Part shown: positions 170 to 41,651 of the stretch, one piece after another
Numbering within the stretch: the stretch's first letter is position 1
Layout of the letters: every line of letters starts with the position of its first letter
Source of the DNA: Syntrophomonadaceae bacterium
Lineage (GTDB): Bacteria > Bacillota > Dethiobacteria > DTU022 > PWGO01
Direction: 5' to 3'
Length of the DNA: 55,336 nucleotides
Assembly (NCBI GenBank): GCA_003554525.1
Contig: PWGO01000004.1
Span: 1 to 55,336, forward strand
Notes under the pieces: model-generated
The model's database searches: none
What the model was told of the DNA's origin: nothing
What the model saw: only the letters and a program-made list of their open reading frames with translations
Program-made: the position numbers and the translations under genes

Positions 170-415
170 TTAAACCTCCTTTGTGGTATAAAGTGCGCCT
201 GAAGGGCAGTAATTGGTACAGGTAAATTCCCGGCAGTCGGGAGTATATATGCAGTTTTCTTCTGTACACAGGCTAATGCTCCCGCTGGAGCGGTCCAGGT
301 AAATTTTTATTTTGGCCTTGGCCGGGTTAAACTCCTGGAAATTGATAAATGCACAGGCCAGCTCACAGCTGCGGCAAGCGGTACACAAATTATGGTGATA
401 ATTTAAGCGTGGCAT
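170..415 (-). CDS. small 4Fe-4S ferredoxin-like protein, probable redox partner of the adjacent AOR
   Basis: 81 aa from ATG 415, with AGGAG 8 nt upstream. The track's GTG at 424 lies on the RBS. CTACRSCELAC is a CxxCxxCxxxC motif, and a second Cys group ends ...CTNYCP. It lies 41 nt downstream of AOR-1 on the same strand. Confidence 0.75.
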   Translation of the reverse strand: MPRLNYHHNLCTACRSCELACAFINFQEFNPAKAKIKIYLDRSSGSISLCTEENCIYTPDCREFTCTNYCPSGALYTTKEV

Positions 416-465
416 AATAACCACTCCTTTTTATAAATTACAGGCACGGCTGCCTGTCAATATGG

Positions 466-2397
466 TTACTTCTCCACAAGGCTTCGGTTATTTTTCAGCT
501 TTTCCAATACGCTTTCCATTCCCAGGCCTTCCAGCCCGCTGCGGGTTTGTAAACCTGTTTCCGGATCCCACCCGTGCAGGTTGTAATATTCATCCAGCAT
601 TTTATCCCAGTGGTTTTGTTCCAACATCTCTCCCTTAAAGGGGCCGCTTTTTATGGGTTCATCCATTAGACGGCGGGGAGGGTAATCGTCCTGGCGTTGG
701 AAACCAGCATGAAGCGTGTTGAATGCTTTTTCCAGGTTGTGTATGCGCTGCCCGGTTTTCATAATTTCCCCGGCAGTCAAGTTTTTACCGGTAGCGGCGT
801 TGAAAAGGCGGGTTATTTCCTCCAGGCCCGGCAGTTCGTAGTGCAACCAGCAGGTGATAAAACAGCACAATCCCATCATATCCACGACAGATTTAAATTT
901 TTCAAACCAGAATACAACCTGCGGCTTGCCTTCGTAGGAAGTAGGCACCCCGGCGGTTTCTACCCCGAACCTTTCCCGGGAATCCTGGCGCGATAATTTA
1001 CCAATTTCCGTTGTTATAGCCCCGTTAAGGTGTCCGCCACCCCGGGGAGCCACTACGGTTCCCAGTGCCCATCCTTTAAGTGAGCGAATTCCTTCTACCA
1101 GTTCTTGATTTTTTACGTGGATGGCGAAGTATTCGCTTTCCCGCTGTAGCAGGGAGGAGGCTTCTTTAACGCCGCGGGCCAGTATATCGCCGAAACCTTC
1201 GCGGTAAGCTATTTTGTGCAGAAGCTCCATAACCGGGGTATAATCTCCCCATTTTAAAGTCAGGCCCCCGGTATCTTTTTTGGTGATAATCCCTTTTTCA
1301 AACAGTTCCAGGGCCCAGGCAATTACCCCGGAACTGTTGTCGATATCCAGACCCAGGTCAATGCACATTTCATGGAATTTCAGGGCCGCCGGAGGATGGT
1401 TAATATCTATCCTGGATTGAAAATTCCATACCAGGTTGGCTTCAAAGCCTTCACAGGCCAGGCCAGCAAATTCGCCGTTTTTAATACGGTAAAAAGCGCT
1501 GCAGAATACGGGGCAGTTAAAACAGGATAGCTTGCGTACCCGGTAGTTATTTTTGAATTCTTCCGGGTGAACGCTGTTAATTTTGTCTTCGGGCCAGTGG
1601 TCATCCTGGAAATTTCGAACAGGTAGCCGGCACATCTGGTTGGCCCCGGGTATGGTAGCAGGGGTTCCCAGGGTGCGCAGGGTTTTAATAACTTCGTTCC
1701 GGTTTAATTTTTCCCGGTATTGATTTACTTCGTGTAAAAATTCCCCGGGGTTAAAAATACTAAATCCCTGCGTGCCTCGAACAGCCAGCGCTTTTAGATT
1801 CTTGGATCCCATAACAGCACCCAAAGCTCCGCGGCCGGCGGCACGGGATTCATCTCCAATAATGCAAGCAGATTTCACCAGGTTTTCACCCGCCGGTCCT
1901 ATGGAGATTATTCTGGTGTACTTGTCCATTAACTCCTGTTTTATCCTGTTTTCTGTTTCCCGGGTACCCAGTCCCCACAGGTTTTCCGCATGTTTCAAGC
2001 AGGCTTTTCCGTTGTTAATATACAGGTACACCGGAGCGGGGGCCTGACCGGTTACAATTACAGCATCAAAACCGGCAAATTTTAACTCGGGCGCAAAGTG
2101 GCCTCCCATGTTGGAAGAAGCCATACCTCCGGTAACCGGGTTTTTGGCGTCAATACTGAGACGGCACGATGCGGGGGCCATGGTTCCTGTCAGCGGTCCG
2201 CAGCTGAAAACCATAACGTTTTCCTTTTCCAGGGGGTCAGCTGTTACCGGTATTTCGTTAAAAATTACCCACTGGCCCAGTCCTCTCCCGCCCGGGTAAT
2301 GATTAACCAGCGACAGGGAAGATTCCACTTTTATTTCCTTAGTAGTTAAGTCAATCCTGAGCAATTTTCCGGTCCACCCGCCAGCTTGTTCATCCAT
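466..2397 (-). CDS. aldehyde:ferredoxin oxidoreductase family (tungstopterin) enzyme, copy 1
   Basis: 643 aa. The N-terminus GKLLRIDLTTKEIKVE...YPGGRGLG...GPLTG is typical of the AOR family. CFNCPVFC is the CxxCxxxC cluster motif. AGGAGG lies 9 nt upstream of the ATG. It is a paralog of 29881..31761. Confidence 0.9.
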   Translation of the reverse strand: MDEQAGGWTGKLLRIDLTTKEIKVESSLSLVNHYPGGRGLGQWVIFNEIPVTADPLEKENVMVFSCGPLTGTMAPASCRLSIDAKNPVTGGMASSNMGGHFAPELKFAGFDAVIVTGQAPAPVYLYINNGKACLKHAENLWGLGTRETENRIKQELMDKYTRIISIGPAGENLVKSACIIGDESRAAGRGALGAVMGSKNLKALAVRGTQGFSIFNPGEFLHEVNQYREKLNRNEVIKTLRTLGTPATIPGANQMCRLPVRNFQDDHWPEDKINSVHPEEFKNNYRVRKLSCFNCPVFCSAFYRIKNGEFAGLACEGFEANLVWNFQSRIDINHPPAALKFHEMCIDLGLDIDNSSGVIAWALELFEKGIITKKDTGGLTLKWGDYTPVMELLHKIAYREGFGDILARGVKEASSLLQRESEYFAIHVKNQELVEGIRSLKGWALGTVVAPRGGGHLNGAITTEIGKLSRQDSRERFGVETAGVPTSYEGKPQVVFWFEKFKSVVDMMGLCCFITCWLHYELPGLEEITRLFNAATGKNLTAGEIMKTGQRIHNLEKAFNTLHAGFQRQDDYPPRRLMDEPIKSGPFKGEMLEQNHWDKMLDEYYNLHGWDPETGLQTRSGLEGLGMESVLEKLKNNRSLVEK

Positions 2398-2510: not shown

Positions 2511-3422
2511 TTACTTGTTTTTTATTTCACGGTACCAGGGTTTTCCTTTAACCGGGTGAAAGCAAAGTTTGTTCTCTTTGGCCATGCAGTTTACACAGCC
2601 CGGTGTGGTTATGCCTGGCAGTTGCGCACCTTTGACTTTTTCCGCGGTTTCTACTGCTGTTTTAACCTGTTCTTCCGTTCCTTCCAGTACCAGGGTGACA
2701 GCGCCCCGGGCTTCTTCAAAACCACCGCTGGAGATACAGTAAGCATTGACCCCGCTAATGATTTTAAAAGCCTCCAGTTCGGTTATTGTTTTACCCTGGT
2801 CTGTAGCAACCAGGCAGCAAGAAATACCCATGGAATAGGAATACTCGTTTCTTTTTGCAAACTTACTAACCTGGTGAACCGGTTGGGGAACAAGCTTTTC
2901 CAGTCCGGCGGGGTAAACCATAGAGAAATTGTTTTCCTTGGCTTTCTCCAGCACGAAACCAAAAGTGCCGCCTTCAACCGGGTGCCCGGCCAAAACACCT
3001 ACATTTTTTTCATGGTCTACTGCATTTACTCCCTTAATGTACAGGTCTCCCTGTCCCATTTCCGAAATAATATCGCCTAAAGGATAATCGTAAATTACTT
3101 CACCCTTTTTTAATACCCAGGAATGGCGGAATCCGGTAGGGGAGGGGTGTTGTTTTATTTCACTGTCTTCTTTTTTTTCAGAATGAAAAGTAATATTGTT
3201 TTCCACGCAGGCCCCGTTTGAAGTTATAACCCCGCAAACCCAAACCCTTTCTTTGGATGGTGGGAAACCGGTGAGCTCTTCAAAAAGGAACCAGGTGCTG
3301 CTGCTGGGATGTATGGTAATAGTGCCGTTTTGCCAGGCATTTTGTACTTCCGGCAGCCTGGCGGTGGCTATACCGATAATTTTTTTGCCTTCCGTTGGAG
3401 TCAGGCTGATCTGAGCTAACAT
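2511..3422 (-). CDS. conserved hypothetical protein with a C-terminal Cys cluster (paralog of 40788..41651)
   Basis: 303 aa from ATG 3422. This start aligns MLAQISLTPTEGKKI with MIAQFVLTSSEAKKF of the paralog. Shared blocks are IHPSSST(W/Y)FL, VW(V/A)(C/A)GVI...GACVE, YIKGVNAVD and G(A/G)VTL(V/L)(L/V)EG.EE.V. The tail is CVNCMAKENKLCFH. I recognise no family. Confidence 0.7.
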   Translation of the reverse strand: MLAQISLTPTEGKKIIGIATARLPEVQNAWQNGTITIHPSSSTWFLFEELTGFPPSKERVWVCGVITSNGACVENNITFHSEKKEDSEIKQHPSPTGFRHSWVLKKGEVIYDYPLGDIISEMGQGDLYIKGVNAVDHEKNVGVLAGHPVEGGTFGFVLEKAKENNFSMVYPAGLEKLVPQPVHQVSKFAKRNEYSYSMGISCCLVATDQGKTITELEAFKIISGVNAYCISSGGFEEARGAVTLVLEGTEEQVKTAVETAEKVKGAQLPGITTPGCVNCMAKENKLCFHPVKGKPWYREIKNK

Positions 3423-3450
3423 AAAATTCACGCTCCCGTTTTTAATAAAC

Positions 3451-5568
3451 TTAGTCGGAAATTCCGTATTGCTTAAGCTTTTCGTAAAGTACAGATCGGT
3501 GTATCCCGAGGATCTGTGAAGCCTGGCGTTTATTACCCCCGGTTCTCTTCAGGGCTTCTTTTATGGCGTCTTTTTCTACTTCCTGCACCAGCTGGTAAAG
3601 GTGGATGTCGCGGTCGTGGAATTTATAGCTTTTGTCTTTTTTAACCGGCAGGTCATCTACAGTAATATTGCCGTCCTGCTTTGAGACCACCGTTCTTTCC
3701 AGTATATTTAATAGCTCCCTGACATTGCCGGGCCAGCTGTATTCTTGCAGGAGCTGTATGGCATTTTCTTCTATTTCGTATTCGAAATTGTCCAGCCCTT
3801 TTTCCCTGCACAGGATTTGCAGGAAATGTTCCACTAAAAGCGGTATATCTTCGGGGCGCTCTCTCAGCGGGGGTATATCTATACGGCACACGTTTAATCG
3901 GTAGAACAGATCCTGCCTGAATTCGCCCCTGTTAACCATTTCTTCCAGGTTTCGGTTGGTGGCGGTTATCAGTCGGAAATCTATGTACTTCACCTTTTCT
4001 CCGCCTACTTTTTCAATTTCCTTGTTTTCTACCACCCTGAGCAGTTTGGACTGGGTTTCTATCGGCATATCGCCTATTTCATCGAGGAAAATTGTCCCTT
4101 TATGTGCCAGCTCGAATTTGCCTTTTTTGCCCTTTTTAGAGGCACCGGTAAAAGCGCCTTCTTCGTATCCAAAAAGCTCCGATTCAAACAGTTCACGCGG
4201 GATGGCGGAACAGTTTACCCGGATAAAAGGCTGGTTGCTTCTTTTGCTGGACTGGTGTATACCGTGTGCAAACAGTTCTTTTCCCGTCCCACTTTCCCCG
4301 TAAATTAAGATATTGTAATTTCCCTGGGCAAAACGGATGCTCAGGTTTTTGATATTTTCTACCCTGTGGTTACGGGTAATGATATGGTCAAAAGAATACC
4401 TGGCTTTACGGAGGTTGGAAAGTTCCTGGTGGTAATATTCTACCTTGCTTTCCAGTAGGTTGAGCTTTTCCGTTAGCTTTTCCAGTTCTTTTTTGTCTTT
4501 GAAAATCACCATTCCCACGGCCCCGAGAACTTCACCATTTTTATTTTTGATGGGCAGCCTGTTGACTACCATTTCACGGTTGTTGTGTTTTAATATGGTG
4601 CCAATCTGGGGCTGTCCCGTTTCCAGTACCGTCTGCATCTGTGATTTGGGGGTGAGGGAGGTTATGTGTTTGCCCATGACCTCCGCCGGTTTTAGATTAA
4701 ATATGCTGGTATTCTGTTCGTTGGTGTATTTTATAAATCCTTTCCTGTCTACAATTACAATTCCTTCGTAGGCGTAATCCATTATGTCTTTAAGGTTGTC
4801 CAGTGTGGATTGAAAAAAGGAATCTTTCTTTTGGGAGGCCAGGTAGGAAAGATTGCTTACATCATGCAGGGTTATACACACTTCCGCTACGGTATCGTTC
4901 TCCAACAGGGGGACACAATTTACCAGTATTTTCTTGCTTTCTTGCAGCTCAATTACCCAGATTTTGCTAGATTTTTCGCTGAATACGGAGTTAACTTTTA
5001 TCCAGGGCGCTACGTCTACTATTAGCCTGTCTATTACTTCCCGGTGGTTAAGACTGAGCAGGTTAATTGCGGCCTGGTTAATGGAAGTTATTCTTTCGTT
5101 TTTGTTTACCAGTATGACCCCGGCGGCTTCATAGATAGTACTTATCCTGGCTTTAAGCCGGTGATAATTTTGTTCCAGTAATTTTAACCAGTCTTCAGCA
5201 AGAATTATTCCTTCGATAATATCTTTGTCTTTCTCTTCATTTACCACTACCAGCGGGAATTTCCACTCCCGGTGCTGCCACATTTCCAGGAGGTTTTCAG
5301 GATCCATGTTTGTTATATGTCCACGCTTAATTATGTTAACAGGACATAGTTCGAGCCTGCTGATTTTTTCCCCGCTATCCATTAAATGCGCCTGTGCCAT
5401 GGTGTTTAAATCTACCGTTCCTTTTGGGTATCCCCTGGAGCTAACTACCATTATTGCCGAACAGTTATTGTTAGCCGCTGCTTTCCACATTTTATCTAAC
5501 GTCTGTTGTTCTGATAAGGTGCAGAAGTTTTGATTGAGGGTTAGATGCCTGGATTCGGTTAAAGTCAA
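3451..5568 (-). CDS. sigma-54-dependent transcriptional activator (bEBP) with N-terminal sensory region, two PAS-like segments, AAA+ domain and Fis-type HTH
   Basis: Walker A is YGESGTGKE. The GAFTGA loop is YEEGAFTGA. Walker B is FLDEIGDM. The C-terminal HTH is NKRQASQILGIHRSVLYEKLKQYGI. TTG start, with GGGGGT 7 nt upstream. Confidence 0.9.
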   Translation of the reverse strand: MTLTESRHLTLNQNFCTLSEQQTLDKMWKAAANNNCSAIMVVSSRGYPKGTVDLNTMAQAHLMDSGEKISRLELCPVNIIKRGHITNMDPENLLEMWQHREWKFPLVVVNEEKDKDIIEGIILAEDWLKLLEQNYHRLKARISTIYEAAGVILVNKNERITSINQAAINLLSLNHREVIDRLIVDVAPWIKVNSVFSEKSSKIWVIELQESKKILVNCVPLLENDTVAEVCITLHDVSNLSYLASQKKDSFFQSTLDNLKDIMDYAYEGIVIVDRKGFIKYTNEQNTSIFNLKPAEVMGKHITSLTPKSQMQTVLETGQPQIGTILKHNNREMVVNRLPIKNKNGEVLGAVGMVIFKDKKELEKLTEKLNLLESKVEYYHQELSNLRKARYSFDHIITRNHRVENIKNLSIRFAQGNYNILIYGESGTGKELFAHGIHQSSKRSNQPFIRVNCSAIPRELFESELFGYEEGAFTGASKKGKKGKFELAHKGTIFLDEIGDMPIETQSKLLRVVENKEIEKVGGEKVKYIDFRLITATNRNLEEMVNRGEFRQDLFYRLNVCRIDIPPLRERPEDIPLLVEHFLQILCREKGLDNFEYEIEENAIQLLQEYSWPGNVRELLNILERTVVSKQDGNITVDDLPVKKDKSYKFHDRDIHLYQLVQEVEKDAIKEALKRTGGNKRQASQILGIHRSVLYEKLKQYGISD

Positions 5569-5692: not shown

Positions 5693-7108
5693 TCATGCCT
5701 GTAGCCTTGTCTGCTGGGCCAGCCATTCCCGGGTGAAGTCTGTTATTAGCTTTACTTCCTCCAGGTTAAGTATACGGTTTAAGAGGCCGTATACGCTTTT
5801 GTTGTTGATAAATATGGTGTGAATGTTGCTTTTGAATTTTTCAATAATGTCTTCTTTTTGCATGGGATTTAGAAGACTTCCCTTGTATCCGGATTCCCTG
5901 GCGGTAAAGGTGGAGCCGTCCCGGGTTTTAACAGTTACCCTGTGCAGATCTTCTTCGTTGTTTTTTATTATACTATAAATTTTGCTCATTAGATACTTAA
6001 TTTCATGATCCGTGCAGGTAAATGCGGAGTCAAATTCTTCTATGCCGGCTCTATTTCTTGACAGTACCAGGGCCACCGCAAAAGGAAGGCTGTACTTGGA
6101 GGCGTATGTATTTTTGGGGTTTATTTTTTCTTCCCACGGTTCGCAAATTATTTTGGACTGTATTTCATTTACGCAACATTCTACAGATTCTATATCCCCG
6201 GGTTTTATGCCGTGATTTTGAACCAGCTTAAAGGCGGCTTCCATGTACGGATGAATGTAAAAGCAGCAGGGGTAGGGCTTGAAGGATATTTTGCAACTGT
6301 TCCAGTTTATACCAAGGTCGTCGAAAAAACCGGAATTTAACCGGGGGTTTCCAAAATAAGCCTGGTTGAAACCCAGGTGTCCTTCAAAGATTTTTTCTGG
6401 GCCGGTAATGCCCCTGGAGGCAAGCATGGCTGCAGTAATACCGGCTTTTGATGACCATCCCGGATGCATGATTTTAGCAAAGCTACCATCTACTGTAGAT
6501 TGAAGCAGGTTGGAATTAAAGTTTGCTCCAATTCCCAGGGCGTTCATGGTCTGTTCTTTAGTTAAACCGAACATTTTGGAGGCCAGAAGGGAGGAAGTAA
6601 TACTCCCGAGCAGGCCGGTAGGAGAGAGTCCGTTGCCGATTAAATTGTTTTGGCTGGAAATGGCTAAAGCGAGCCTGGTAGATATTTCGTATCCCAGGGA
6701 AGCCACGGTAATGACCTCCCTGCCGCTTGCACCAACGGTTTCTCCCAGGGCAAGGGCGGCAGGGACTATAAAGCAGCTGGGGTGGAGGCCGGTGCTTTGG
6801 TGAACGTCATCATATTGAAGCCCGTGGGCAAAAACGGAATTAAAAAAAGCGGCAGTAGGGGCGGAAAGCTTGTAATCCATCCCGAAAACAGTTCCGTGTT
6901 TGTCCGGGCCGGGTAAAAAGTATTCTTCGCCAACCTCCAATAATTTTAAACTCTGTTCCATTTTAGAATATAGCAAGGCGTTCCCCAGGGTATCGACAAA
7001 CCTCAATTTAACGTCTTCCCTGGCATAGTCTGGGAGGTAATCATTGGAAAAGTTGACGGTAAATTCCGCAAGCTTTTCACTAATGGTGGCATAGTTTGGT
7101 TTTTCCAT
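5693..7108 (-). CDS. MmgE/PrpD-family protein (2-methylcitrate dehydratase / cis-aconitate decarboxylase superfamily), copy 2
   Basis: 471 aa. Family-typical block FAHGLQYDDVHQSTGLHPSCF. Its length and overall layout resemble the other two PrpD-family ORFs in the window. Confidence 0.85.
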   Translation of the reverse strand: MEKPNYATISEKLAEFTVNFSNDYLPDYAREDVKLRFVDTLGNALLYSKMEQSLKLLEVGEEYFLPGPDKHGTVFGMDYKLSAPTAAFFNSVFAHGLQYDDVHQSTGLHPSCFIVPAALALGETVGASGREVITVASLGYEISTRLALAISSQNNLIGNGLSPTGLLGSITSSLLASKMFGLTKEQTMNALGIGANFNSNLLQSTVDGSFAKIMHPGWSSKAGITAAMLASRGITGPEKIFEGHLGFNQAYFGNPRLNSGFFDDLGINWNSCKISFKPYPCCFYIHPYMEAAFKLVQNHGIKPGDIESVECCVNEIQSKIICEPWEEKINPKNTYASKYSLPFAVALVLSRNRAGIEEFDSAFTCTDHEIKYLMSKIYSIIKNNEEDLHRVTVKTRDGSTFTARESGYKGSLLNPMQKEDIIEKFKSNIHTIFINNKSVYGLLNRILNLEEVKLITDFTREWLAQQTRLQA

Positions 7109-7178
7109 ATGGCCTCACCTTTTTTAAAAAATATATTTGCTGGAGATGACCTGCCTTGTTTTATGAAAGTTAATTTAG

Positions 7179-32046: not shown

Positions 32047-32133
32047 TGGTTAGTATTATAAACCTTATGTTTGCTTAAACGGTGGAGTAATAGTAATCCT
32101 GGTCGATTAAAGTAAACAGGGGTGATTAGCGTT

Positions 32134-32754: not shown

Positions 32755-32828
32755 CTGCAAATTAGATAAATAAATAAAATGATAGAAATTTTGTTTTTTG
32801 GTTTTTAAGGTGGTAATTACAAGGAGGT

Positions 32829-34202: not shown

Positions 34203-34231
34203 AGTAAACGTTAAAAAGGAGTGAATGGAAA

Positions 34232-35503
34232 TTGGGTGAAACCTTTGCACAAAAGATCCTGGCTCAAAAATCGGGGCGGAAAAGGGTGGAAAACGATCAG
34301 TTTTTACGTTGTAAGGTGGACGGGGTGCTGGCAAATGACGCCACCGCCAAGCTCATGATTGAGAGTTTTAACAAGATGAACCGCGAAGTTGCCGACATGC
34401 CGGAAGGATGCACTATTTATTTTGATCACTTTGCCCCGGCACCCAACCAGGATGCGGCAGCCAACCACAACCTGGTAAGGGATTTTTGTCGCAAACACAA
34501 AATCAAGCTTTACGATGTGGGAAGGGGCAGTCACCTGCACGTACCGGTAGAAATAGGACAGTGCAGGCCAGGAATGCTTTTTGTGGGCGCAGATTCTCAC
34601 ACTACTGTTTTGGGAGGTGTGGGGGCTTTTGCCACCGGCGTTGGTTCCACTGAGCTGGCTTCGGTTCTGGCCACTGGAGAGCTCTGGTTTCGCGTGCCCC
34701 GGGTTGTAAAAGTTGAGCTAAAAGGCGAAATGCCGGAGTACGTAGTAGCAAAAGACATTATGCTTGAGGTGGTACGCCAGCTAACTATATCGGGCGGGAG
34801 GTATAAAGCGCTGGAGTTTACCGGTGAAGCAGTAAAAAATTTAAGCGTGGAATCGCGTCTGGCCATGGCCAGTATGGCGGTTGATATCGGCGCCAAGGTG
34901 GGATTCTTTGCTGCAGACCGCATAACGGAAGAATACATTCGTGAATATACGGACAGGCCCTTTAACATTGTAACAAGCGACCCGGGAGCAAATTACGAGC
35001 GTACTGTTACTGTTGATTTATCCAGCCTGGAGCCTCTGGTGGCCCTGCATCCCAGCATAGACAATGTACAGCCGGTTTCCGGACTAACCGAAACTATAGA
35101 AATAAATGAAGTATACCTGGGTTCCTGCACTAACGGGAGGCTGGAAGACCTGGAAACAGCGGCGGAAATGCTGCAGGGAAGAAGGATTTGCCCCGGGGTA
35201 AGGCTGATAGTAGCACCACAGAGTAAAATTATTTACGAAAAAGCGCTGGCGGAAGGCATTATTCAAAAATTGTCCGAGGCCGGGGCGGTAATTTTGCCCA
35301 GCGGCTGCGGCCCGTGCTCCGGGACTCACCTGGGAGTTATGGCTCCGGGAGAAAAAGTTTTATCCACTGGCAGTCGCAACTCCCCCGGAAGAATGGGAAG
35401 CGGGCAGTCGCAGATATTTGTTGCCTCCCCGGTTACAGCTGCGGCAGCGGCACTGGAAGGAAGGATAGTTGATCCCAAACAAACAGGATGGGGGGGGAAA
35501 TAA
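34232..35503 (+). CDS. aconitase-family hydratase large subunit (LeuC / homoaconitase / dimethylmaleate-hydratase type)
   Basis: 423 aa, TTG start with AAAGGAGTGA upstream. VGADSHTT, GSCTNGR and PSGCGPCSG are the Fe-S ligand and substrate motifs of this family. Confidence 0.85.
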   Translation: MGETFAQKILAQKSGRKRVENDQFLRCKVDGVLANDATAKLMIESFNKMNREVADMPEGCTIYFDHFAPAPNQDAAANHNLVRDFCRKHKIKLYDVGRGSHLHVPVEIGQCRPGMLFVGADSHTTVLGGVGAFATGVGSTELASVLATGELWFRVPRVVKVELKGEMPEYVVAKDIMLEVVRQLTISGGRYKALEFTGEAVKNLSVESRLAMASMAVDIGAKVGFFAADRITEEYIREYTDRPFNIVTSDPGANYERTVTVDLSSLEPLVALHPSIDNVQPVSGLTETIEINEVYLGSCTNGRLEDLETAAEMLQGRRICPGVRLIVAPQSKIIYEKALAEGIIQKLSEAGAVILPSGCGPCSGTHLGVMAPGEKVLSTGSRNSPGRMGSGQSQIFVASPVTAAAAALEGRIVDPKQTGWGGK

Positions 35504-35504
35504 G

Positions 35505-36011
35505 ATGCTGGAAACGTATAAAGGGAAAGTAGTAAAACTGGGTGATAACGTGGATACCAACGACATAATTGCCACCAGATTTTTAATTTATACTGATCCC
35601 CAAAAACTCAAAGATTACCTGTTTTACGAAATAGACCCGGGTTTCACTGAACGTATTGAACCCGGGAGCATCCTTGTGGCCGGACACAATTTCGGGTGCG
35701 GCAGTTCACGGGAGCATGCGGCTATAGTAATTAAGGCAGCGGGTTTCAGGGCTGTAGTAGCAGAAAGTTTTGCCCGTATATTTTTCCGAAATTCTATTGC
35801 CATAGGGCTGCCCCTTATAGAGTGCCCGGGCATTGCCACGGAATGCAAGCAGGGTGATGAACTGGAAGTGGATATCAGGAACTCGGTGGTAAAAGTAAAG
35901 GACAGGGAGATGGAGGGCCTTAAGTACCCGGAATTTATTCTGGATATACTCGAATACGAGGGGCTTTCCAACTGGATAGCGGAAAACAGGGACCAGGTAT
36001 TAAAGCCATAA
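35505..36011 (+). CDS. aconitase-family hydratase small subunit (LeuD type)
   Basis: ATG 35505 sits immediately after the large-subunit stop (ATAAGATG). GHNFGCGSSREHA is the LeuD signature. Confidence 0.85.
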   Translation: MLETYKGKVVKLGDNVDTNDIIATRFLIYTDPQKLKDYLFYEIDPGFTERIEPGSILVAGHNFGCGSSREHAAIVIKAAGFRAVVAESFARIFFRNSIAIGLPLIECPGIATECKQGDELEVDIRNSVVKVKDREMEGLKYPEFILDILEYEGLSNWIAENRDQVLKP

Positions 36012-36029
36012 AAAGCTCAGACGGGAAAT

Positions 36030-36893
36030 TTGATGGAGGTGAAAAAAGTGACGGAACAGAGTAGCGGCAGAAAAGGATGGTGGGATAGCTCCATTTTTAA
36101 GGCAGAACCGAACAAGCTGTTGTACAGGGGTTACCGTATAGAGGATTTGTTAGGCCGCGTTTCATACGGTGAAATGGTTTATTTGATGGTCAAGGGTGAA
36201 CTGCCCCGCAAAAACGCAGGAAGGCTTATGGATGCTCTCCTGGTAGCGGCATGCGACCATGGGGCGGTATCACCTGCGGTAACCGCCTCCATGATGGCTG
36301 CCACCTGCGGGGTTACTTTTAACTCAGTAATAGCTACGGGTATGAACCTCCTGGGAAGAATACACGGGGGTGCAGTGGAAGAAGCCATGCGGGTTTACCT
36401 GGAGGCTGGAAGAGAAGTGGAAGATGGCCGGGAAGAGCTGGAAGTGTGCCGGGAAATTGCCCGGCGCTATAAAGAAAACAAACATTTTGTTCCCGGCTAC
36501 GGGCATCCCGTACACGACGATGATCCCCGGGTAAAAAAGCTTTTGGAAATGGGCTCGGAGGTGGTTCAGCTTGGGGAAATAAGCGGCAGGTATATATCTA
36601 TTTCACGGACCATGGGTGAATGTATAAACGAAAATTCCCGCCGACATATACCTTTAAACGTGGATGCGGCTATTGCAGCACTGTTGTGTGAGCTGGAACT
36701 GCCCCCGGAAACGGCCATGGGGTATATCTGTCTGTCGCGTGGAATTGGCCTGATGGCGCATGGCTACGAGGAATACCGGAAAGGAACCAGGATGAAAGCA
36801 CCCTGCCCTCCGGACATCTTGAAGGAAGAGATGACGTATTCTGGCCCGTCGGAAAGAGACCTCCCGGAGGAGCGCGAAAAAAATAAGGAGTAA
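36030..36893 (+). CDS. short citrate-synthase-family protein (citryl-CoA-lyase-like)
   Basis: About 281-287 aa, far shorter than a full citrate synthase. LLYRGYRIEDL, GRIHGGAVEE, VPGYGHPVH and PLNVDAAIA are the citrate-synthase catalytic His/His/Asp contexts. The start is ambiguous (TTG 36030, ATG 36033, or GTG 36048 with GGAGGTG 6 nt upstream). Confidence 0.75.
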   Translation: MMEVKKVTEQSSGRKGWWDSSIFKAEPNKLLYRGYRIEDLLGRVSYGEMVYLMVKGELPRKNAGRLMDALLVAACDHGAVSPAVTASMMAATCGVTFNSVIATGMNLLGRIHGGAVEEAMRVYLEAGREVEDGREELEVCREIARRYKENKHFVPGYGHPVHDDDPRVKKLLEMGSEVVQLGEISGRYISISRTMGECINENSRRHIPLNVDAAIAALLCELELPPETAMGYICLSRGIGLMAHGYEEYRKGTRMKAPCPPDILKEEMTYSGPSERDLPEEREKNKE

Positions 36894-37014
36894 GGTAGAA
36901 GTGAAATGGGGACCAGCTGGTAGTAAAGGAAGCCTTAATAATCCGGGAAGTGAAGTTAGTTGCGCATGCGGTACTTTTAAAGGGTAAACATCCAGGAAGG
37001 AGGAGGTTGAATAC

Positions 37015-38286
37015 ATGGCAAGGCTGCTGGAATACCAGGGGAAGGAACTGCTAAAGAAGTCGAAAATAAAAGTGCCCCGTGGGGAAGTAGTTGAAAGCAT
37101 GGAGAGGGCCGTGGCTGCTGCTTTAGAGATAGGTTTCCCGGTTATGGTAAAAGCCCAGGTGTTTCGCGGGGGAAGGGGAAAAGCCGGGGGCATTCATAAA
37201 GCGGAAGATATGACTTCCCTGGATAAGATTTGCAGGACGTTGCTGGGGAACGAGGTGGGCGGGTTAAAGGTAGAGAAGTTGCTGGTGGAAGAAAAGCTGG
37301 ACATAAAAAAAGAGGTTTACCTGGCGATAACGGGAGACCCTCAGACCCGCAAACCGGTGTTAATTTTCAGCGAAACCGGGGGAGTAGATATTGAAGAAGT
37401 TGCCCGTAATAACCCGGAAAAGGTAGTGTCGCAAACCATTGATATTTTAGAAGGACTTTACGATTACCAGGCCCGGAATGCTATTCGGAAGTGTCCCGGT
37501 CTGGACGGCAGAGAAATGGTCAAGTGTGCCGAAGCTGCTACCGGGCTATTTCTTGTTTACCGCGGTTACGATTGCAAACTGGTGGAAATCAACCCGATGG
37601 TTATCACTACCGGGGGTGAACTGCTGGCGGCTGATGCCCGTGTAGACGTGGATGATGATGCCGTATGGCGACACCCGGAGCTGGGCCTTACCGCGGCGGA
37701 AGAGGCGGGAGACCGGCCTTCCACGCTTCTGGAAATGGAGGCCGGCTGTATTGACGAGGGCGATCACCGCGGCTCGGCTCATTTTGTCCAAATAGACCCG
37801 GACGGGGCTTATGCCGAAGAAACCGGTAAAATATCCATAGGGTTTAACACGGTGGGTACCGGCTGCGGCCTGACCTTGCTGGACGAAATAGTTCCGCTGG
37901 GTTACTACCCGGTGAACTTTTGTGATACCTCCGGCAACCCTACCTCCTTGAAAATGTACGCTGCCACCAGGATTATTTTTTCTCAGCCTGGTATAAACGG
38001 CTATATATTTGTCACGGGAGTTGCGGCACAGCTGCTGGATAATACTGCCAGGGGTATAATAAAAGCGCTCCTGGAGTTATACCCGGGAACAGGAGGGCAG
38101 CCAAACATACCCTGTGTTTTTGTTTTTCGGGGACGTTCCGATGAGGTGGCTCTGCAGCTTTTCGAGGAGCACGGAATAAGCAAAAGCCCCATGGTTAAAA
38201 TGATGGGGCGGTGGGCCACGGAAAAAGATGCGGCACGTGCTTTTGACGAATTATACCGGAAGTTTCAACCGGTGGGAAAGGAGTAG
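37015..38286 (+). CDS. ATP-grasp beta-like subunit of an ADP-forming acyl-CoA synthetase (SucC / citryl-CoA-synthetase large-subunit-like), unit 2
   Basis: 423 aa. MARLLEYQGKELLKKSKIKVPRG...KAQVFRGGRGKAGGI. GAAGGAGGAGG upstream. Confidence 0.8.
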   Translation: MARLLEYQGKELLKKSKIKVPRGEVVESMERAVAAALEIGFPVMVKAQVFRGGRGKAGGIHKAEDMTSLDKICRTLLGNEVGGLKVEKLLVEEKLDIKKEVYLAITGDPQTRKPVLIFSETGGVDIEEVARNNPEKVVSQTIDILEGLYDYQARNAIRKCPGLDGREMVKCAEAATGLFLVYRGYDCKLVEINPMVITTGGELLAADARVDVDDDAVWRHPELGLTAAEEAGDRPSTLLEMEAGCIDEGDHRGSAHFVQIDPDGAYAEETGKISIGFNTVGTGCGLTLLDEIVPLGYYPVNFCDTSGNPTSLKMYAATRIIFSQPGINGYIFVTGVAAQLLDNTARGIIKALLELYPGTGGQPNIPCVFVFRGRSDEVALQLFEEHGISKSPMVKMMGRWATEKDAARAFDELYRKFQPVGKE

Positions 38287-38293
38287 GTGGATA

Positions 38294-38626
38294 ATGCCGG
38301 AAATAATGAAGTTTAGAACCATGGGGGAAGCAACGGTAACCGTGGAACTGGATAAGTGCGGGGCATGTCGCAGCAAGGCCTGCGTAGAAGCATGTAGCAA
38401 ACCGCACATGGGTAATATCCTGGAACTGGACGGGGAAGGGAAACCCAGGCTGTTAATGGAGAAAAACAAGGTAAAACGTGGCGGATGTACGGACTGCCTG
38501 GCCTGTGAGCTTGACTGCAGGCTTTACGGTAAAGGGGCGCTAAAAATTAGCCTGGAAATGCCCTACCTGGAAGAACACCTGCGGCAATTAACCGAACGCG
38601 GGGAGAAAATAGTTTACCGGGATTAA
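38294..38626 (+). CDS. small ferredoxin-like protein between the beta-like and alpha-like subunits, unit 2
   Basis: 110 aa from ATG 38294. The track's earlier start overlaps the upstream gene. CGACRSKACVEAC and CTDCLACELDC make 8 Cys, with the second motif canonical CxxCxxCxxxC. It is a homolog of 19496..19822. Confidence 0.65.
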   Translation: MPEIMKFRTMGEATVTVELDKCGACRSKACVEACSKPHMGNILELDGEGKPRLLMEKNKVKRGGCTDCLACELDCRLYGKGALKISLEMPYLEEHLRQLTERGEKIVYRD

Positions 38627-38692
38627 TAACGGCAAATAAGGGAATTTGTCAATTTCCCTTGATCATTAACAAGAAGAGCCAAGGAGGCCTGA

Positions 38693-39595
38693 ATGATGAG
38701 TATTCTATTGGATCAAAATACGGGATGTATGGTCCAGGGGATAACGGGAAGGGAAGCGCGAATACGCGCTGCTACCATGAAAGAATACGGAACCAGGCTT
38801 GTCTGTGGGATTACTCCCGGACGCGGAGGTGAAGTGGTGGAGGGAGATATCCCGGTTTACGATACCGTAGAAGAAGCGAAGGAAAACCACCCTGAGGTAG
38901 CGGCATCCGCGCTAATGGTGCCCGCCGCACTGGTGAAAAATGCCGCTTTTGAAGCCATTGATGCCGGTATAAAAGTTATTCTTTTAATTCCCGAAAGAGT
39001 TCCCCAGCAGGATATGCTGGAGATTATCGAGAGAAGCAGGAAAAAAGGTAGTTTTGTGGTTGGCCCCAACTCTATCGGGCTGATCAGCCCCGGGAAAGCC
39101 CTGCTGGGTATGATAGGGGGCACCCCGGAGCTGGCGCGGGAGCTTTTTAAAGAAGGCGAGTGCGGAGTGATGTCGCGAAGCGGAGGGCATACTACCACTA
39201 CTTCTTACTACCTTACCAGGGAAGGTGTGGGACAGAGTACTTGTGTAGCAGTGGGAGGCGACGCTTTTGTGGGCTCTTCTTTCGACGAGCTACTGCCCCT
39301 TTTTGAAACAGACCCGCAGACAAGGGCGGTGGTGATTTTTGGCGAACCGGGCACTACTGCCGAGGAAGATGTGGCCCGGATGATGGAAGAGAAAAAGTTT
39401 ACCAAGCCGCTTATCGCTTACGTAGCGGGGAAATACGTGCGCCCGGGTATGCGCTTTGGACATGCGGGAGCCATAATAAACAAGGGTGAAGGCAGGGTGG
39501 AAGATAAATTGCACAGGTTGAGAAAAGCAGGAGTTCACGTGGTGGATCACCTGGGGGATGTGGGAAAGGTAGCCCGTGAGCTTAACCTGAAATAA
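38693..39595 (+). CDS. CoA-binding alpha-like subunit (SucD / citryl-CoA-synthetase small-subunit-like), unit 2
   Basis: 300 aa. CMVQGITGREA, SRSGGHTTT and RFGHAGAII (phosphohistidine loop). AAGGAGG upstream. Confidence 0.85.
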   Translation: MMSILLDQNTGCMVQGITGREARIRAATMKEYGTRLVCGITPGRGGEVVEGDIPVYDTVEEAKENHPEVAASALMVPAALVKNAAFEAIDAGIKVILLIPERVPQQDMLEIIERSRKKGSFVVGPNSIGLISPGKALLGMIGGTPELARELFKEGECGVMSRSGGHTTTTSYYLTREGVGQSTCVAVGGDAFVGSSFDELLPLFETDPQTRAVVIFGEPGTTAEEDVARMMEEKKFTKPLIAYVAGKYVRPGMRFGHAGAIINKGEGRVEDKLHRLRKAGVHVVDHLGDVGKVARELNLK

Positions 39596-39608
39596 GGTGG
39601 GTAGACCT

Positions 39609-40760
39609 ATGTGGAGCCGCGAACAGGATCTTTTAAAATGTGTAATCATGCGGGGTGGGACCAGTAAAGCGGTGTTTTTTAAATCCAACGAGCTTCCCGG
39701 GAATCTGGCAGAGCGGGAAAGACTGATTTTAAAGGTTTTTGGTAGCCCTGATTTAAGGCAGATAGATGGACTGGGTGGAGCCGACGTTACTACCAGCAAG
39801 GTGGCTATTATCGGGCCTTCTACCAGGAAAGATGCAGATGTGGATTATACTTTTGGACAGGTTGGCTTGAACCAACCCCGGGTGGACTGGAATGTGAACT
39901 GCGGCAATATTTCTGCGGCAGTGGGCCCTTTTGCTGTAGACGAAGGGATGGTTCCTCCTGCAGAGGGGGAAACCAGGGTGCGTATATTTAATACCAATAC
40001 GCAGAAGATTATTACCGCCTTTGTTCCCGTGATTTCCGGGAAAGCAGCGGTAAAAGGTGAATACGCTATAGACGGTGTGCCGGGGCGGGGGGGGCGGATT
40101 AACCTGGACTACTCGCAGACAGTGGGGGCCGCCACGGGCAAGCTCCTGCCCACGGGAAACGCCGTAGATTATATCGAGCACAGCGGAAAGAAAGTGCCGG
40201 TTTCAGTGGTGGATGTAGCCAATCCTTCCCTGTTTATTGCTGCCGAAGAGGTAGGGCTTACCGGTAAAGAAGCCAGGCCGGCGCTGTCTTCTTGCACGGA
40301 GGTACTGCAGCATCTGGAAGAAATCCGTTGCATAGCCGCGGTAAAATGCGGTTTTGTAAAGAACCCGGGGGAGGCAACGGAGAAAAGCCCGGTCCGGCCC
40401 AAGGTTATCCTGGTAGCGGCTCCGGTTGATTATGAGGATTACGCAAGCGGTGAAATCATTGCCGGGGATAAAGTGGATTTCCTTTCCCGGGTGATCTGGA
40501 ACCAGGCCCCTGTGGAAACGCACACGGGAACAGGGGCGGTTTGTGCTGCTGCTGCGGCGCTGGTGCCAGGAACTGTTTTGAACATGGTAGCCTCCGAAAA
40601 AGCCAAAAACAGCGGCCTGGTGCGCATAGGACATCCCCGCGGCATCCTGGAACTGGAGTGCGAAACAAAGATGGAAGGCGGAAGTATTTCTTTCCAGCGG
40701 ATCTTTTTTGGAAGGACTGCCAGGAGAATTATGGAGGGATATGTATATATAACGGTTTAA
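39609..40760 (+). CDS. PrpF / 3-methylitaconate-isomerase / aconitate-isomerase family protein
   Basis: Start at ATG 39609, with AAGGTGG 8 nt upstream. LKCVIMRGGTSKAVFF is the family's N-terminal signature. About 383 aa. Confidence 0.85.
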   Translation: MWSREQDLLKCVIMRGGTSKAVFFKSNELPGNLAERERLILKVFGSPDLRQIDGLGGADVTTSKVAIIGPSTRKDADVDYTFGQVGLNQPRVDWNVNCGNISAAVGPFAVDEGMVPPAEGETRVRIFNTNTQKIITAFVPVISGKAAVKGEYAIDGVPGRGGRINLDYSQTVGAATGKLLPTGNAVDYIEHSGKKVPVSVVDVANPSLFIAAEEVGLTGKEARPALSSCTEVLQHLEEIRCIAAVKCGFVKNPGEATEKSPVRPKVILVAAPVDYEDYASGEIIAGDKVDFLSRVIWNQAPVETHTGTGAVCAAAAALVPGTVLNMVASEKAKNSGLVRIGHPRGILELECETKMEGGSISFQRIFFGRTARRIMEGYVYITV

Positions 40761-40787
40761 AATACAAACCAAACGGAGGAATGGCCT

Positions 40788-41651
40788 ATGATAGCCCAGT
40801 TTGTTTTGACCTCCAGCGAAGCCAAGAAATTTATATCCCTGGGGCTGGCCCGGCATCCCCTGGTACAGGAAGCTGTGGAAGATTCTATGGTAGTTATACA
40901 TCCCAGCAGCAGCACATATTTCCTGGTGGAGGCGCTTACCGGTTATGTACCCGGGACAAAGGTGTGGGTAGCGGGAGTTATTGTGCCGCGCGGGGCCTGC
41001 GTGGAAGCAAATACGCGGCCCACGCGCCGGGAAGGTGAAGCCCTGACTACTTCCCTGAAAGACCCGGGAATGTTTCCATACTCCTGGGTAATAAAAAAGG
41101 GGAGCCTGTATACTGGTATAAAACTCGATGATATCCTGAAAGAGATGGACGAAAAATCGGTCTATGTAAAAGGTGTTAATGCCGTAGATACAGCCAAAAA
41201 TGCAGGGGTGCTTCGTGCCAGCATGGCCGAAGGTACCATCGGCAAGGTTTTAAAGGTGTCGGAAAAAAATAAATTTAAAATTATTTGCCCTGTGGGAACG
41301 GAAAAACTGGTATGGGGAAGCTTGGCGGAAAAAGACGGTTTTAGCTCAAAAAAGAAAGACTACGCTATGGGTTGCAGCGTCAATCTGTTTACGTTAAAGC
41401 CGTTGGTAATAAACGAAACGGAAGCCGCATCTCTTCTGGGTGAAGTCAACGCAGAAGTTATAGCTTCAGGTGGACTGGCCGGAGCGGAAGGAGGGGTAAC
41501 GCTCCTGGTAGAAGGAGAAAAAGAAGAAGTAAGAAAAGTTATCCAGGCCGCAGAACTTAGCAAGGGAGCCCGCCTGCCGGAGGTGCTGTTGGCCCCGTGC
41601 AGTGACTGTGGAGTGCCCACCTGCGAGTTTAAGGGTTGGGAAGAAGTATAA
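40788..41651 (+). CDS. conserved hypothetical protein with a C-terminal Cys cluster (paralog of 2511..3422)
   Basis: 287 aa. See 2511..3422 for the shared blocks. The tail is APCSDCGVPTCEF. It is the last gene of the operon. Confidence 0.7.
   Translation: MIAQFVLTSSEAKKFISLGLARHPLVQEAVEDSMVVIHPSSSTYFLVEALTGYVPGTKVWVAGVIVPRGACVEANTRPTRREGEALTTSLKDPGMFPYSWVIKKGSLYTGIKLDDILKEMDEKSVYVKGVNAVDTAKNAGVLRASMAEGTIGKVLKVSEKNKFKIICPVGTEKLVWGSLAEKDGFSSKKKDYAMGCSVNLFTLKPLVINETEAASLLGEVNAEVIASGGLAGAEGGVTLLVEGEKEEVRKVIQAAELSKGARLPEVLLAPCSDCGVPTCEFKGWEEV

Follow-up and report, generated by a model that had tools for sequence, protein, structure and literature searches.

We report here the analysis of a gene cluster at positions 170 to 41651 of contig PWGO01000004.1 from a Syntrophomonadaceae bacterium, which combines transporters, amide and nitrile hydrolases, aldehyde:ferredoxin oxidoreductases (AORs), MmgE/PrpD-family enzymes, hydro-lyases, CoA ligases and C-C lyases, and which we consider as a candidate for the anaerobic catabolism of branched dicarboxylates. 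The window is the whole contig of 55,336 bp, and its open reading frames (ORFs) are annotated by Pfam and NCBIfam scans. On the whole, every enzyme listed for this region in the initial annotation is recovered in its place by the two scans. The region begins with the end of a small ferredoxin-like ORF behind AOR1 (position 170) and closes with the end of the last gene of the cluster, U287 (position 41651). In addition to the earlier list, we find two sigma-54 activators, five predicted sigma-54 promoters, the adjacency of rpoN, two copies of a protein family here called U, ferredoxin-like ORFs inside both CoA-ligase operons, a DUF1847 protein, and the small ferredoxin-like ORF at 170-424. The excess of promoters, the internal activators with rpoN next to them, and the recurrence of sub-sets of the cluster elsewhere indicate that the genes are grouped beyond chance.

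The region had been called an island, and the word holds for a functional grouping. It does not hold for a mobile element: neither integrase, transposase nor flanking repeat is seen, the G+C content of the region is only slightly higher than that of the flank, and no mobility genes occur anywhere in the contig, due to which the mobile reading is rejected. The host is taken to be an uncultured member of Bacillota and, judged from the AORs, the Fe-S hydro-lyases and the TfrAB-type enzyme, an anaerobe; the closest named relatives of its TsaD belong to Firmicutes metagenome-assembled genomes (MAGs, about 63-65% identity) and Desulfohalotomaculum (59%).

Two modules and their predicted sigma-54 promoters

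The initial annotation treated the region as one pathway. Instead, we read it as two paralogous modules, A+B (170-26479) and C (27049-41651), rather than one linear pathway, because the gene content is duplicated and the two parts have separate activators, promoters and candidate upstream motifs (Table 1). In module A+B, a minus-strand unit (TRAP-Iso-PrpD-PrpD-activator-U-AOR-ferredoxin) diverges from a plus-strand unit (MFS; TfrAB-ligase-CitE lyase; Fe-S hydro-lyase-DUF1847-activator). Module C has the order SSF-nitrilase-AOR2, followed by Iso-b-PrpD-c-LeuCD-CCL-ligase-isomerase-U. The paralogs share 36% identity for AOR1/AOR2, 42% for U306/U287, 36% for Iso-a/Iso-b, 36% for SucC1/SucC2, 49% for SucD1/SucD2, 28% for the small ORFs sm108/sm132 and 39% for the two activators, and PrpD-a, PrpD-b and PrpD-c are 30-35% identical to each other.

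The sigma-54 consensus TGGCAY-N5-TTGC is matched five times in the window (0.31 matches expected). All five predicted promoters are intergenic, lie inside the region and are oriented toward the first gene of a unit. Together with two enhancer-binding activators and rpoN, all elements of a sigma-54 regulon are present at the sequence level. Activator 1 has in its N-terminal part a second PAS domain and a weak CBS match. Two different motifs are enriched upstream: TGTACA, of which 5 of the 12 window copies fall into the two intergenic stretches that precede the dctP/MFS and tfrA promoters (12685-12782 and 14391-14465, the latter with three copies upstream of tfrA; p 5e-6), and YTTAAACR, with 8 of 23 copies in the two intergenic regions of the SSF and Iso-b promoters (26544-26805 and 31774-32081; p 2e-9). 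These motifs are candidate binding sites of the two activators, which suggests that A+B and C are two regulons. The SSF-nitrilase-AOR2 genes form a transcription unit of their own with a terminator-like hairpin behind it (31991-32008), and this nitrilase-AOR sub-operon appears tied to the remainder only by adjacency and the shared promoter type. An Rfam scan of the window for riboswitches that might name a ligand gives a tRNA as the single match.

Table 1. Genes and predicted promoters of the cluster, in the order of their positions in the window
Feature	Position	Strand	Remarks
84-aa ferredoxin-like ORF	170-424	-	Cys-rich; weak Fer4 matches (E 1.6e-4 to 3e-3), below Pfam cut-offs
AOR1, aldehyde:ferredoxin oxidoreductase family	466-2397	-	AFOR_N 245 bits, AFOR_C 348 bits
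U306, family U	2511-3431	-	No Pfam or NCBIfam match
Sigma-54 activator 1 (PAS, AAA+, HTH_8)	3451-5568	-	Sigma54_activat 230 bits
PrpD-a, divergent MmgE/PrpD	5693-7108	-	Pfam; Q88, I145, S150 at IDS epimerase positions
PrpD-b, MmgE/PrpD with two-base (His/Tyr) epimerase signature	7179-8549	-	Alignment to IDS epimerase
Iso-a, isochorismatase-type amidohydrolase	8580-9227	-	Pfam 124 bits
TRAP transporter	9264-12322	-	DctM 9264-10547, DctQ 10577-11269, DctP 11291-12322; DctP above TRAP_S1 cut-off
Predicted sigma-54 promoter TGGCACAAAATTTGC	12487-12501	-	Upstream of dctP
Predicted sigma-54 promoter TGGCATATATTTTGC	12997-13011	+	Upstream of MFS gene
MFS transporter	13150-14382	+	MFS_1 157 bits
Predicted sigma-54 promoter TGGCATGTTATTTGC	14671-14685	+	Upstream of tfrA
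TfrA-like flavoprotein	14837-16585	+	Best NCBIfam match TfrA, 555 bits (cut-off 718)
TfrB-like Fe-S/CCG protein	16640-18178	+	Best NCBIfam match TfrB, 323 bits (cut-off 385)
ADP-forming CoA ligase 1	18225-20769	+	SucC-like 18225-19490, sm108 19496-19822, SucD-like 19846-20769
CitE/HpcH-family acyl-CoA lyase	20804-21733	+	HpcH_HpaI 148 bits
Two-subunit class I Fe-S hydro-lyase (fumarase/mesaconase/tartrate dehydratase type)	22098-23668	+	Fumerase 242 bits, Fumerase_C 73 bits
DUF1847, Cys-rich protein	23773-24489	+	179 bits; behind the fumarase-type Fe-S hydro-lyase
Sigma-54 activator 2, PrpR_N sensor domain	24590-26479	+	PrpR_N 121 bits, Sigma54_activat 235 bits
Predicted sigma-54 promoter TGGCACGGGAATTGC	26737-26751	+	Upstream of SSF gene; YTTAAACR copies near
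SSF sodium:solute symporter (PutP/PanF-like)	27049-28545	+	
Branch-1 nitrilase	28679-29833	+	CN_hydrolase 143 bits
AOR2, canonical aldehyde:ferredoxin oxidoreductase	29881-31761	+	405 and 379 bits to solved AORs
Predicted sigma-54 promoter TGGCACCGATTTTGC	32031-32045	+	Upstream of Iso-b
Iso-b, isochorismatase-type amidohydrolase (N-carbamoylsarcosine/maleamate amidohydrolase clade)	32122-32754	+	
PrpD-c, MmgE/PrpD, one-base type	32829-34202	+	Ile at the Tyr145 position
LeuCD-like Fe-S hydro-lyase	34232-36011	+	LeuC-like 34232-35503; LeuD-like, probable start 35505, end 36011
CCL, short citrate-synthase-type citryl-CoA lyase, 287 aa	36030-36893	+	NF004864 303 bits (cut-off 261)
ADP-forming CoA ligase 2	37015-39595	+	SucC-like 37015-38286, sm132, SucD-like 38693-39595
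sm132, 8-Cys small ORF	38228-38626	+	Position as listed; probable start 38294
PrpF-family double-bond isomerase, closest to Mii	39597-40760	+	
U287, family U	40788-41651	+	No Pfam match
rpoN (sigma-54)	41974-43377	+	Three Sigma54 domains; directly downstream of the cluster

Enzyme families and their specificity

The PrpF-family isomerase of module C aligns over its full length with Mii of Eubacterium barkeri (3G7K; 382 bits, E 3e-113, 49.5% identity), compared with about 238 bits to the PrpF methylaconitate isomerases and about 215 bits to the oxalomesaconate isomerases, and it retains the positions of Mii Lys62 and Cys96.

Most of the MmgE/PrpD family is, to our knowledge, uncharacterised. 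All three paralogs in the cluster have both Pfam domains of the superfamily and the conserved His99 and Lys198/Lys266 positions. With 36-63 bits they stay far below the cut-offs of the 2-methylcitrate dehydratase models (458-950), and they score 28-33 bits to solved PrpD versus 121-148 bits to IDS epimerase, CAD and the Bacillus subtilis 'IRG1'; on these scores, none of the three is a 2-methylcitrate dehydratase. Aligned to IDS epimerase, PrpD-b has all seven diagnostic residues (H85, E88, H99, Y145, H150, K198, K266), and its ortholog in the related metagenome locus L004 retains the Tyr. PrpD-a and PrpD-c are without this epimerase Tyr, PrpD-c having Ile there as its orthologs in other loci do, and the orthogroup of PrpD-c retains 'LIERGFH'. 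Epimerases of the family use a His/Tyr pair, from which we take the criterion, and they include the (S)-(R)-methylsuccinate isomerase (Gonner et al. 2025, PMC12290011). By alignment, PrpD-b carries the His/Tyr epimerase signature of this isomerase and is a candidate epimerase. The earlier description of the PrpD enzymes as dehydratases or decarboxylases on tricarboxylates is hence too narrow, considering this signature and the distance from 2-methylcitrate dehydratase. All known substrates of the family share a C2/C3-substituted 1,4-dicarboxylate backbone (PMC12290011). Some MmgE/PrpD paralogs adjacent to U in other loci (L025, 13594-14922; L109, 6396-7742) lack several carboxylate-binding residues (e.g. 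M85, L88, R150, V198) and may be non-catalytic or perform other chemistry.

For the hydratase of module C, LeuC is above the cut-off of the aconitase/isopropylmalate dehydratase large-subunit subfamily, and the LeuCD-type pair matches the LeuD/DmdB subfamily (TIGR02087), an assignment made by model. The LeuD loop, known to determine substrate preference (PMC7308503), reads R-F-L-I-Y-T, i.e. hydrophobic and of the isopropylmalate-isomerase type. In Jeyakanthan et al. 2010, hydrophobic residues at this place (YLVY) reportedly mark enzymes for alkyl-substituted substrates, and Arg-Thr (YLRT) homoaconitases. Therefore, of the 'di/tricarboxylate' named as substrate in the initial annotation, alkyl-substituted dicarboxylates are favoured over tricarboxylates. 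The closest solved structure to CCL is the citryl-CoA lyase of Hydrogenobacter thermophilus (6HXP, 144 bits), and CCL shares with citrate synthase and with that lyase the motifs HGGA, GYGH, DPR, NVD and SR..G..AH. Its oxaloacetate-binding motifs are conserved, and its product may be either oxaloacetate or pyruvate.

Both SucD-like subunits retain the phospho-histidine position (SHASA in ligase 1, GHAGA in ligase 2). The small ORFs sm108 and sm132, located between the SucC-like and SucD-like genes, are paralogs with 8 Cys in two ferredoxin-like groups. A small Cys-rich ORF (6877-7272) has the same position between the ligase genes of locus L009, where the whole set of ligase 2 (SucC, small ORF, SucD) is conserved. 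For an ADP-forming ligase, it would be unusual to have an Fe-S subunit.

Among the enzymes that may act on nitrogen- or aldehyde-bearing groups, the nitrilase has NitA, cyanide dihydratases and nitrilases as its closest solved structures (182-198 bits). Iso-b scores 168 bits to solved N-carbamoylsarcosine amidohydrolase, 128 bits to 4L07 and 86 bits to 3OT4/3UAO NicF, the maleamate amidohydrolase (PMC5806882), and it groups with amidohydrolases of heterocycle ring-opening products, NicF included. AOR2 as a BamB-like ring reductase is rejected, as BamB gives 229 bits versus 405 and 379 bits to genuine AORs.

In module A+B, the TfrAB-like pair does not reach the TfrA and TfrB cut-offs; no other models match it better, and its domains are arranged identically. 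The pair may also resemble TcuA/TcuB of tricarballylate utilisation. The CitE-like lyase is below the cut-offs of both citE (202 bits) and RipC/Ccl (133 bits, cut-off 375). The alpha part of the fumarase-type hydro-lyase is nearer to the fumarate hydratase model than to tartrate dehydratase (247 vs 156 bits), and the beta part is about equal (131 vs 133). Like the CitE-type lyase and TfrAB, both ligases and the fumarase-type hydro-lyase have their highest scores with the models they are named after and stay under the curated cut-offs; all of these are taken as paralogs rather than housekeeping enzymes.

Family U consists of proteins of about 290 aa, with about 640 cluster representatives at E <=1e-10 among 1.84 billion proteins, the members being named only 'hypothetical'. 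No Pfam or NCBIfam model matches the family, and a sequence search of PDB gives no match. Besides the two copies in the window, members are found in L004, L009, L025-L029 and L112, with about 80 metagenome loci. The invariant positions include His38, Cys71, Lys128, Asn131, Asp134, Glu172 and Lys173, and three further invariant Cys near the C-terminus (CxxCxxxxC in U287) make four together with Cys71; the motifs HPSSST and KGVNAxD are near-invariant. U287 is 52% identical to a protein of L004 which adjoins PrpF and PrpD. Its AF2 model has a pLDDT of 91, and Foldseek against PDB gives weak matches only, to ribose-1,5-bisphosphate isomerase and eIF2B (E about 3e-3, TM 0.32). Counting genes within 6 kb in 50 loci of at least 6 kb, we find near U an MmgE/PrpD gene in 14, a TRAP permease in 10, a family III CoA-transferase in 9 and a glycyl-radical enzyme with its activase in 8. 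The glycyl-radical loci come from Dehalococcoidia and other anaerobes; in L028, L029 and L112, the ones whose gene order was read, U directly adjoins the glycyl-radical enzyme, in L028 and L112 between the enzyme and the activase; L029 has a NicX-family gene beside U, and one U locus adjoins a TctABC tricarboxylate transporter. The Dehalococcoidia-type contigs of L028 and L112 share a cluster with two family III CoA-transferases, carboxylesterases, a glycyl-radical enzyme, U and a radical-SAM activase, continued by a second glycyl-radical enzyme or esterase, a flavodoxin-like protein and a phosphotriesterase-family protein. Judged from its gene content, this is an uncharacterised glycyl-radical system. 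Overall, U, the 8-Cys ORF and DUF1847 recur beside Fe-S hydro-lyases, MmgE/PrpD or glycyl-radical enzymes, and DUF1847 may assist Fe-S hydro-lyases as an accessory protein.

Related loci and characterised systems

The neighbourhood search proposed in the initial annotation returns sub-sets of the cluster, and the full complement in none of the genomes. Scanning species-representative genomes with family U gives 20 loci, mostly in Dehalococcoidia MAGs, likewise none with the full complement; for PrpD-c, even the closest homologs do not exceed 50% identity, and they stand in varied contexts. Among the related loci, L009 from a deltaproteobacterial MAG has GntR, CCL, SucC, the small Cys ORF, SucD, LeuC, LeuD and U at 41-65% identity, with an ABC transporter and an enoate-reductase-type flavoenzyme after U. 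L026 has a PanB-like protein, PrpD, U, LeuC, LeuD and a lyase of the isocitrate lyase (ICL)/phosphoenolpyruvate (PEP) mutase type, then an ABC transporter, an Amidohydro_1 enzyme and two isochorismatases. In L025 we find a sigma-54 activator with PrpR_N, PrpF, TRAP, PrpD, U, LeuCD, an ICL-type lyase and a further PrpD. L004 includes PrpF (55% identity), a PrpD-c type (49%), U (52%), another PrpD and a PrpD-b type (47%), together with an ICL-type lyase, ETF and an Fe-S/CCG protein. L001-3 have an ICL-type lyase, TRAP, a PrpD-c type, LeuCD and enoate reductase; L030 and L031 have PrpD-c orthologs beside family III CoA-transferases, MaoC and acyl-CoA dehydrogenase, like the itaconate/methylsuccinate cluster; and L032 has a DUF1847 homolog (55% identity) between U and LeuCD. 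Compared across these loci, the conserved core appears to be MmgE/PrpD, U, LeuCD and a C-C lyase (ICL-type, or CoA ligase with CCL), and its optional extras a PrpF/Mii-type isomerase, a C=C oxidoreductase and amide hydrolases. The ligase with CCL stands in the window and in L009 where other relatives have the ICL-type lyase. Both would cleave C2-C3 of the same kind of 2-hydroxy-3-substituted dicarboxylate, the ligase with CCL keeping the acyl thioester, and the swap would therefore be chemically coherent.

No complete described pathway fits the enzyme set, as had been claimed: the methylcitrate cycle, the E. barkeri nicotinate fermentation, itaconate/methylsuccinate degradation and the reductive tricarboxylic acid (rTCA) cycle each fail on defining genes. 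Among ORFs of at least 100 aa we find no ICL/PEP-mutase lyase, full-length citrate synthase, Mo-hydroxylase, amidohydrolase-type enamidase, B12 mutase, MaoC hydratase, family III CoA-transferase or 2-oxoacid:ferredoxin oxidoreductase, and a tblastn search of the window with the ICL-type lyase and the amidohydrolase of related loci gives no match. Literature searches gave no description of such a gene combination, nor of new routes through dimethylmaleate or methylitaconate.

By sequence comparison, the closest characterised relative is the terminal segment Mii-DmdAB-Dml of the E. barkeri nicotinate route. The isomerase is nearly half identical to Mii, a two-subunit LeuCD-type hydratase lies in its operon, and relatives of the cluster have after LeuCD a lyase of the ICL/PEP-mutase type, to which Dml belongs. 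The initial annotation had dismissed this route. The cluster has no nicotinate dehydrogenase, 6-hydroxynicotinate reductase, enamidase, Hgd, Hmd or B12-dependent 2-methyleneglutarate mutase, has an ATP-dependent CoA ligase and a citrate-synthase-type lyase in place of the ICL-family dimethylmalate lyase, and has additional MmgE/PrpD, U, AOR, nitrilase and isochorismatase genes.

The pseudomonad itaconate/methylsuccinate cluster (Ict, Ich, Ccl, Mcd, Msi; PMC12290011) is similar in its MmgE/PrpD with the His/Tyr pair (as PrpD-b), TRAP transporter, CitE-family lyase, dehydrogenation from the alkylsuccinate to the alkylfumarate level, and a class I fumarase-type enzyme as possible mesaconase, class I fumarase being known to serve as mesaconate hydratase (PMC12290011). 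However, it uses a family III CoA-transferase, an acyl-CoA dehydrogenase and MaoC on the CoA ester, whereas here we find ADP-forming ligases, a TfrAB-type enzyme and Fe-S hydro-lyases, the latter two expected to act on the free acid, in an anaerobic host. The citryl-CoA synthetase/lyase of H. thermophilus likewise has a short citrate-synthase-like lyase adjoining SucC-like and SucD-like subunits. Here the context is catabolic and inducible, with LeuCD, Mii and MmgE/PrpD; the remaining key enzymes of the rTCA cycle are missing, the ligase subunits are separated by an additional ferredoxin-like ORF with 8 Cys, and, unlike in H. thermophilus, the substrate of ligase 2/CCL is probably not citrate. 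With the methylcitrate cycle, the cluster shares the MmgE/PrpD and PrpF families, an aconitase-superfamily hydro-lyase and a sigma-54 activator with PrpR_N; yet PrpB and PrpC are missing, the citrate synthase fold being present only as the CCL-type fragment of 287 aa, the PrpD paralogs lie at a great distance from 2-methylcitrate dehydratase, and the isomerase is Mii-like. The mesaconate branch of clostridial glutamate fermentation has a two-subunit Fe-S fumarase-type hydro-lyase and a CitE-type beta-subunit lyase as well, and the same products would be expected (an acetyl unit and pyruvate), but glutamate mutase, methylaspartase, CitD and CitF are missing here, and an ATP-dependent ligase would supply the thioester. 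On this comparison, each known system shares two to four families with the cluster and fails on its defining members.

Candidate route and rival explanations

Based on the observed enzyme families, operon order, paralogy and predicted sigma-54 promoters, and on a core partly conserved elsewhere, we give a probability of about one half to the reading that both modules serve an inducible, sigma-54-dependent anaerobic catabolism of alkyl-branched C4-dicarboxylates, together with their amide, nitrile or aldehyde precursors. We infer from sequence the substrate class (methylsuccinate, mesaconate, citraconate, itaconate and dimethylmaleate), the order of the steps, the direction of flux and the stereochemical split. 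The logic of the initial annotation, i.e. import, deamidation or unmasking, isomerisation with hydration, and ATP-dependent thioesterification before a lyase, still fits best. In module C, the SSF symporter would import the substrate, and the nitrilase, AOR2 and Iso-b would turn -CN, -CHO and -CONH2 into -COO-, such unmasking releasing ammonia or reduced ferredoxin. PrpD-c and the Mii-like isomerase would then shift protons and double bonds, for example from an exo-methylene compound to a cis-alkylmaleate, which LeuCD would hydrate to 2-alkylmalate (the cis/(R) line). The SucCD-like ligase with its ferredoxin-like ORF would spend ATP to form the CoA thioester, and the CCL-type lyase would give acyl-CoA and a 2-oxoacid. 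In module A+B, TRAP and MFS would be the importers, Iso-a and AOR1 would unmask carboxylates, PrpD-b would epimerise the alkylsuccinate, and the TfrAB-like enzyme would interconvert alkylsuccinate and alkylfumarate; the class I Fe-S hydro-lyase would hydrate the trans acid (the trans/(S) line), and the second SucCD-like ligase with the CitE-type lyase would give acyl-CoA and pyruvate or glyoxylate. Family U, DUF1847 and the small Cys-rich ORFs would have roles in the pathway as well, U perhaps joining MmgE/PrpD and the Mii-like isomerase in stereo- or double-bond isomerisation.

Several points weigh against this reading. The substrate class rests on sequence evidence throughout, and TfrAB, both ligases and the CitE-like lyase are below the curated cut-offs of their nearest models. 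No reaction is assigned to PrpD-a, PrpD-c, U, DUF1847 or the small Cys-rich ORFs. In most related loci the core is not accompanied by the nitrilase, AORs and isochorismatases, which may serve another purpose, and the two modules could serve unrelated substrates. Furthermore, CCL is above the cut-off for citryl-CoA lyases with the citrate-synthase motifs retained, and PrpR_N, which in Salmonella PrpR responds to 2-methylcitrate, is present on activator 2 and on the activator of L025; both suit tricarboxylates of the citrate/methylcitrate type equally or better.

The last two points speak for a catabolism of tricarboxylates (of the trans/cis-aconitate, tricarballylate, citrate or 2-methylcitrate type), in which TfrAB would be a tricarballylate/alkylsuccinate dehydrogenase, the PrpF-family enzyme would isomerise (methyl)aconitate, LeuCD and PrpD would interconvert (methyl)aconitate and (methyl)citrate, and ligase 2 with CCL would give acetyl- or propionyl-CoA and oxaloacetate. 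MmgE/PrpD and PrpF are moreover the classic families of the methylcitrate cycle, and the TctABC transporter beside one U locus is in line with it. We consider this unlikely, since the LeuD loop is hydrophobic without an arginine, the isomerase is nearer to Mii than to PrpF, the PrpD paralogs are so far below the 2-methylcitrate dehydratase cut-offs, and the CitE-type lyase, the second ligase and the fumarase-type hydro-lyase would be left without a role. The rTCA cycle, as a part of central carbon metabolism in a reductive or branched form, overlaps in five enzyme families and is rejected as highly improbable: the scores are under the housekeeping cut-offs (SucC 223 and 242 vs 370, SucD 282 and 281 vs 336, TfrA 555 vs 718 bits), the genes are embedded among three transporters, amidases and inducible sigma-54 activators, and the window has no 2-oxoglutarate:ferredoxin oxidoreductase, isocitrate dehydrogenase or malate dehydrogenase.

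The nitrogen-related genes lead to another explanation, the lower half of an anaerobic pathway for N-heterocycles or cyclic imides (nicotinate-like, or a substituted maleimide/maleamate) whose ring-attacking enzymes are encoded elsewhere. Amides and aldehydes from ring opening would lose ammonia, and a methylitaconate/dimethylmaleate skeleton would go to acyl-CoA and pyruvate, with ligase and CCL replacing dimethylmalate lyase. This agrees with the likeness to Mii, the LeuD/DmdB type of LeuCD, the clade of Iso-b, the three enzyme types here that give a carboxylate from nitrogen- or aldehyde-bearing groups, the NicX-family gene beside U in L029, and L026, where PrpD-U-LeuCD and the ICL-type lyase join an Amidohydro_1 enzyme and two isochorismatases. 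It overlaps with the catabolism of branched dicarboxylates proposed above, the origin of the carbon skeleton being the chief difference, and it is quite unlikely in view of the 55-kb contig having no Mo-hydroxylase, 6-hydroxynicotinate reductase, enamidase, B12 mutase, or 2-(hydroxymethyl)glutarate dehydrogenase or dehydratase, and of the amide and nitrile enzymes not accompanying the core in most related loci. Very unlikely, in our estimate, is that no common pathway exists and that independent sigma-54 operons (nitrile/aldehyde detoxification, dicarboxylate and tricarboxylate units) merely lie near rpoN. The five separate promoters, the two activators, the two different upstream motifs, the separate SSF-nitrilase-AOR2 unit with its hairpin, and the rarity of AOR, nitrilase and isochorismatase beside the core elsewhere would all be explained, but the duplication of so unusual a set (AOR, U, MmgE/PrpD, isochorismatase, and three-ORF ligase with lyase and Fe-S hydro-lyase) and the recurrence of the U-PrpD-LeuCD-lyase linkage in unrelated lineages argue against it.

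Returning to the branched dicarboxylates, we advance as a tentative proposal, less probable than the reading itself, that the cluster is the first genetic blueprint for anaerobic or fermentative catabolism of the itaconate and methylsuccinate type. It would act on free acids by Fe-S hydro-lyases and a TfrAB-type dehydrogenase, use ADP-forming ligases that have a new ferredoxin-like subunit to conserve the thioester before lyases of the CCL or CitE type act, and depend on family U, a family not recognised before, with its conserved four-Cys site, whose partners are MmgE/PrpD and glycyl-radical enzymes. What is new here is the arrangement of families, which are themselves known, and several parts without an assigned function, namely family U, the 8-Cys ORF in SucCD-like operons and DUF1847. 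According to Gonner et al. 2025 (PMC12290011), itaconate fermentation is not known from any bacterium, and the sole anaerobic fate described for itaconate is its reduction. Itaconate and methylsuccinate are plentiful in guts and soils, and a gene set for their anaerobic breakdown would close a gap and supply markers for metagenomes. The non-orthologous swap of an ICL-type lyase for an ATP-dependent ligase and a citrate-synthase-type lyase would keep the thioester, an energy-saving logic typical of anaerobes.

In the flank of the cluster, an HpaB-family protein is encoded right behind rpoN (43527-45050, +), with scores far under the cut-offs of 4-hydroxyphenylacetate monooxygenase; given the anaerobic host, it is more likely a 4-hydroxybutyryl-CoA dehydratase-type enzyme. 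The housekeeping genes beyond include a cold-shock-protein ORF (about 45600-45800, +), tRNA-Thr(TGT) (47603-47677, +) and tsaE-tsaB-rimI-tsaD (50652-53689, +).

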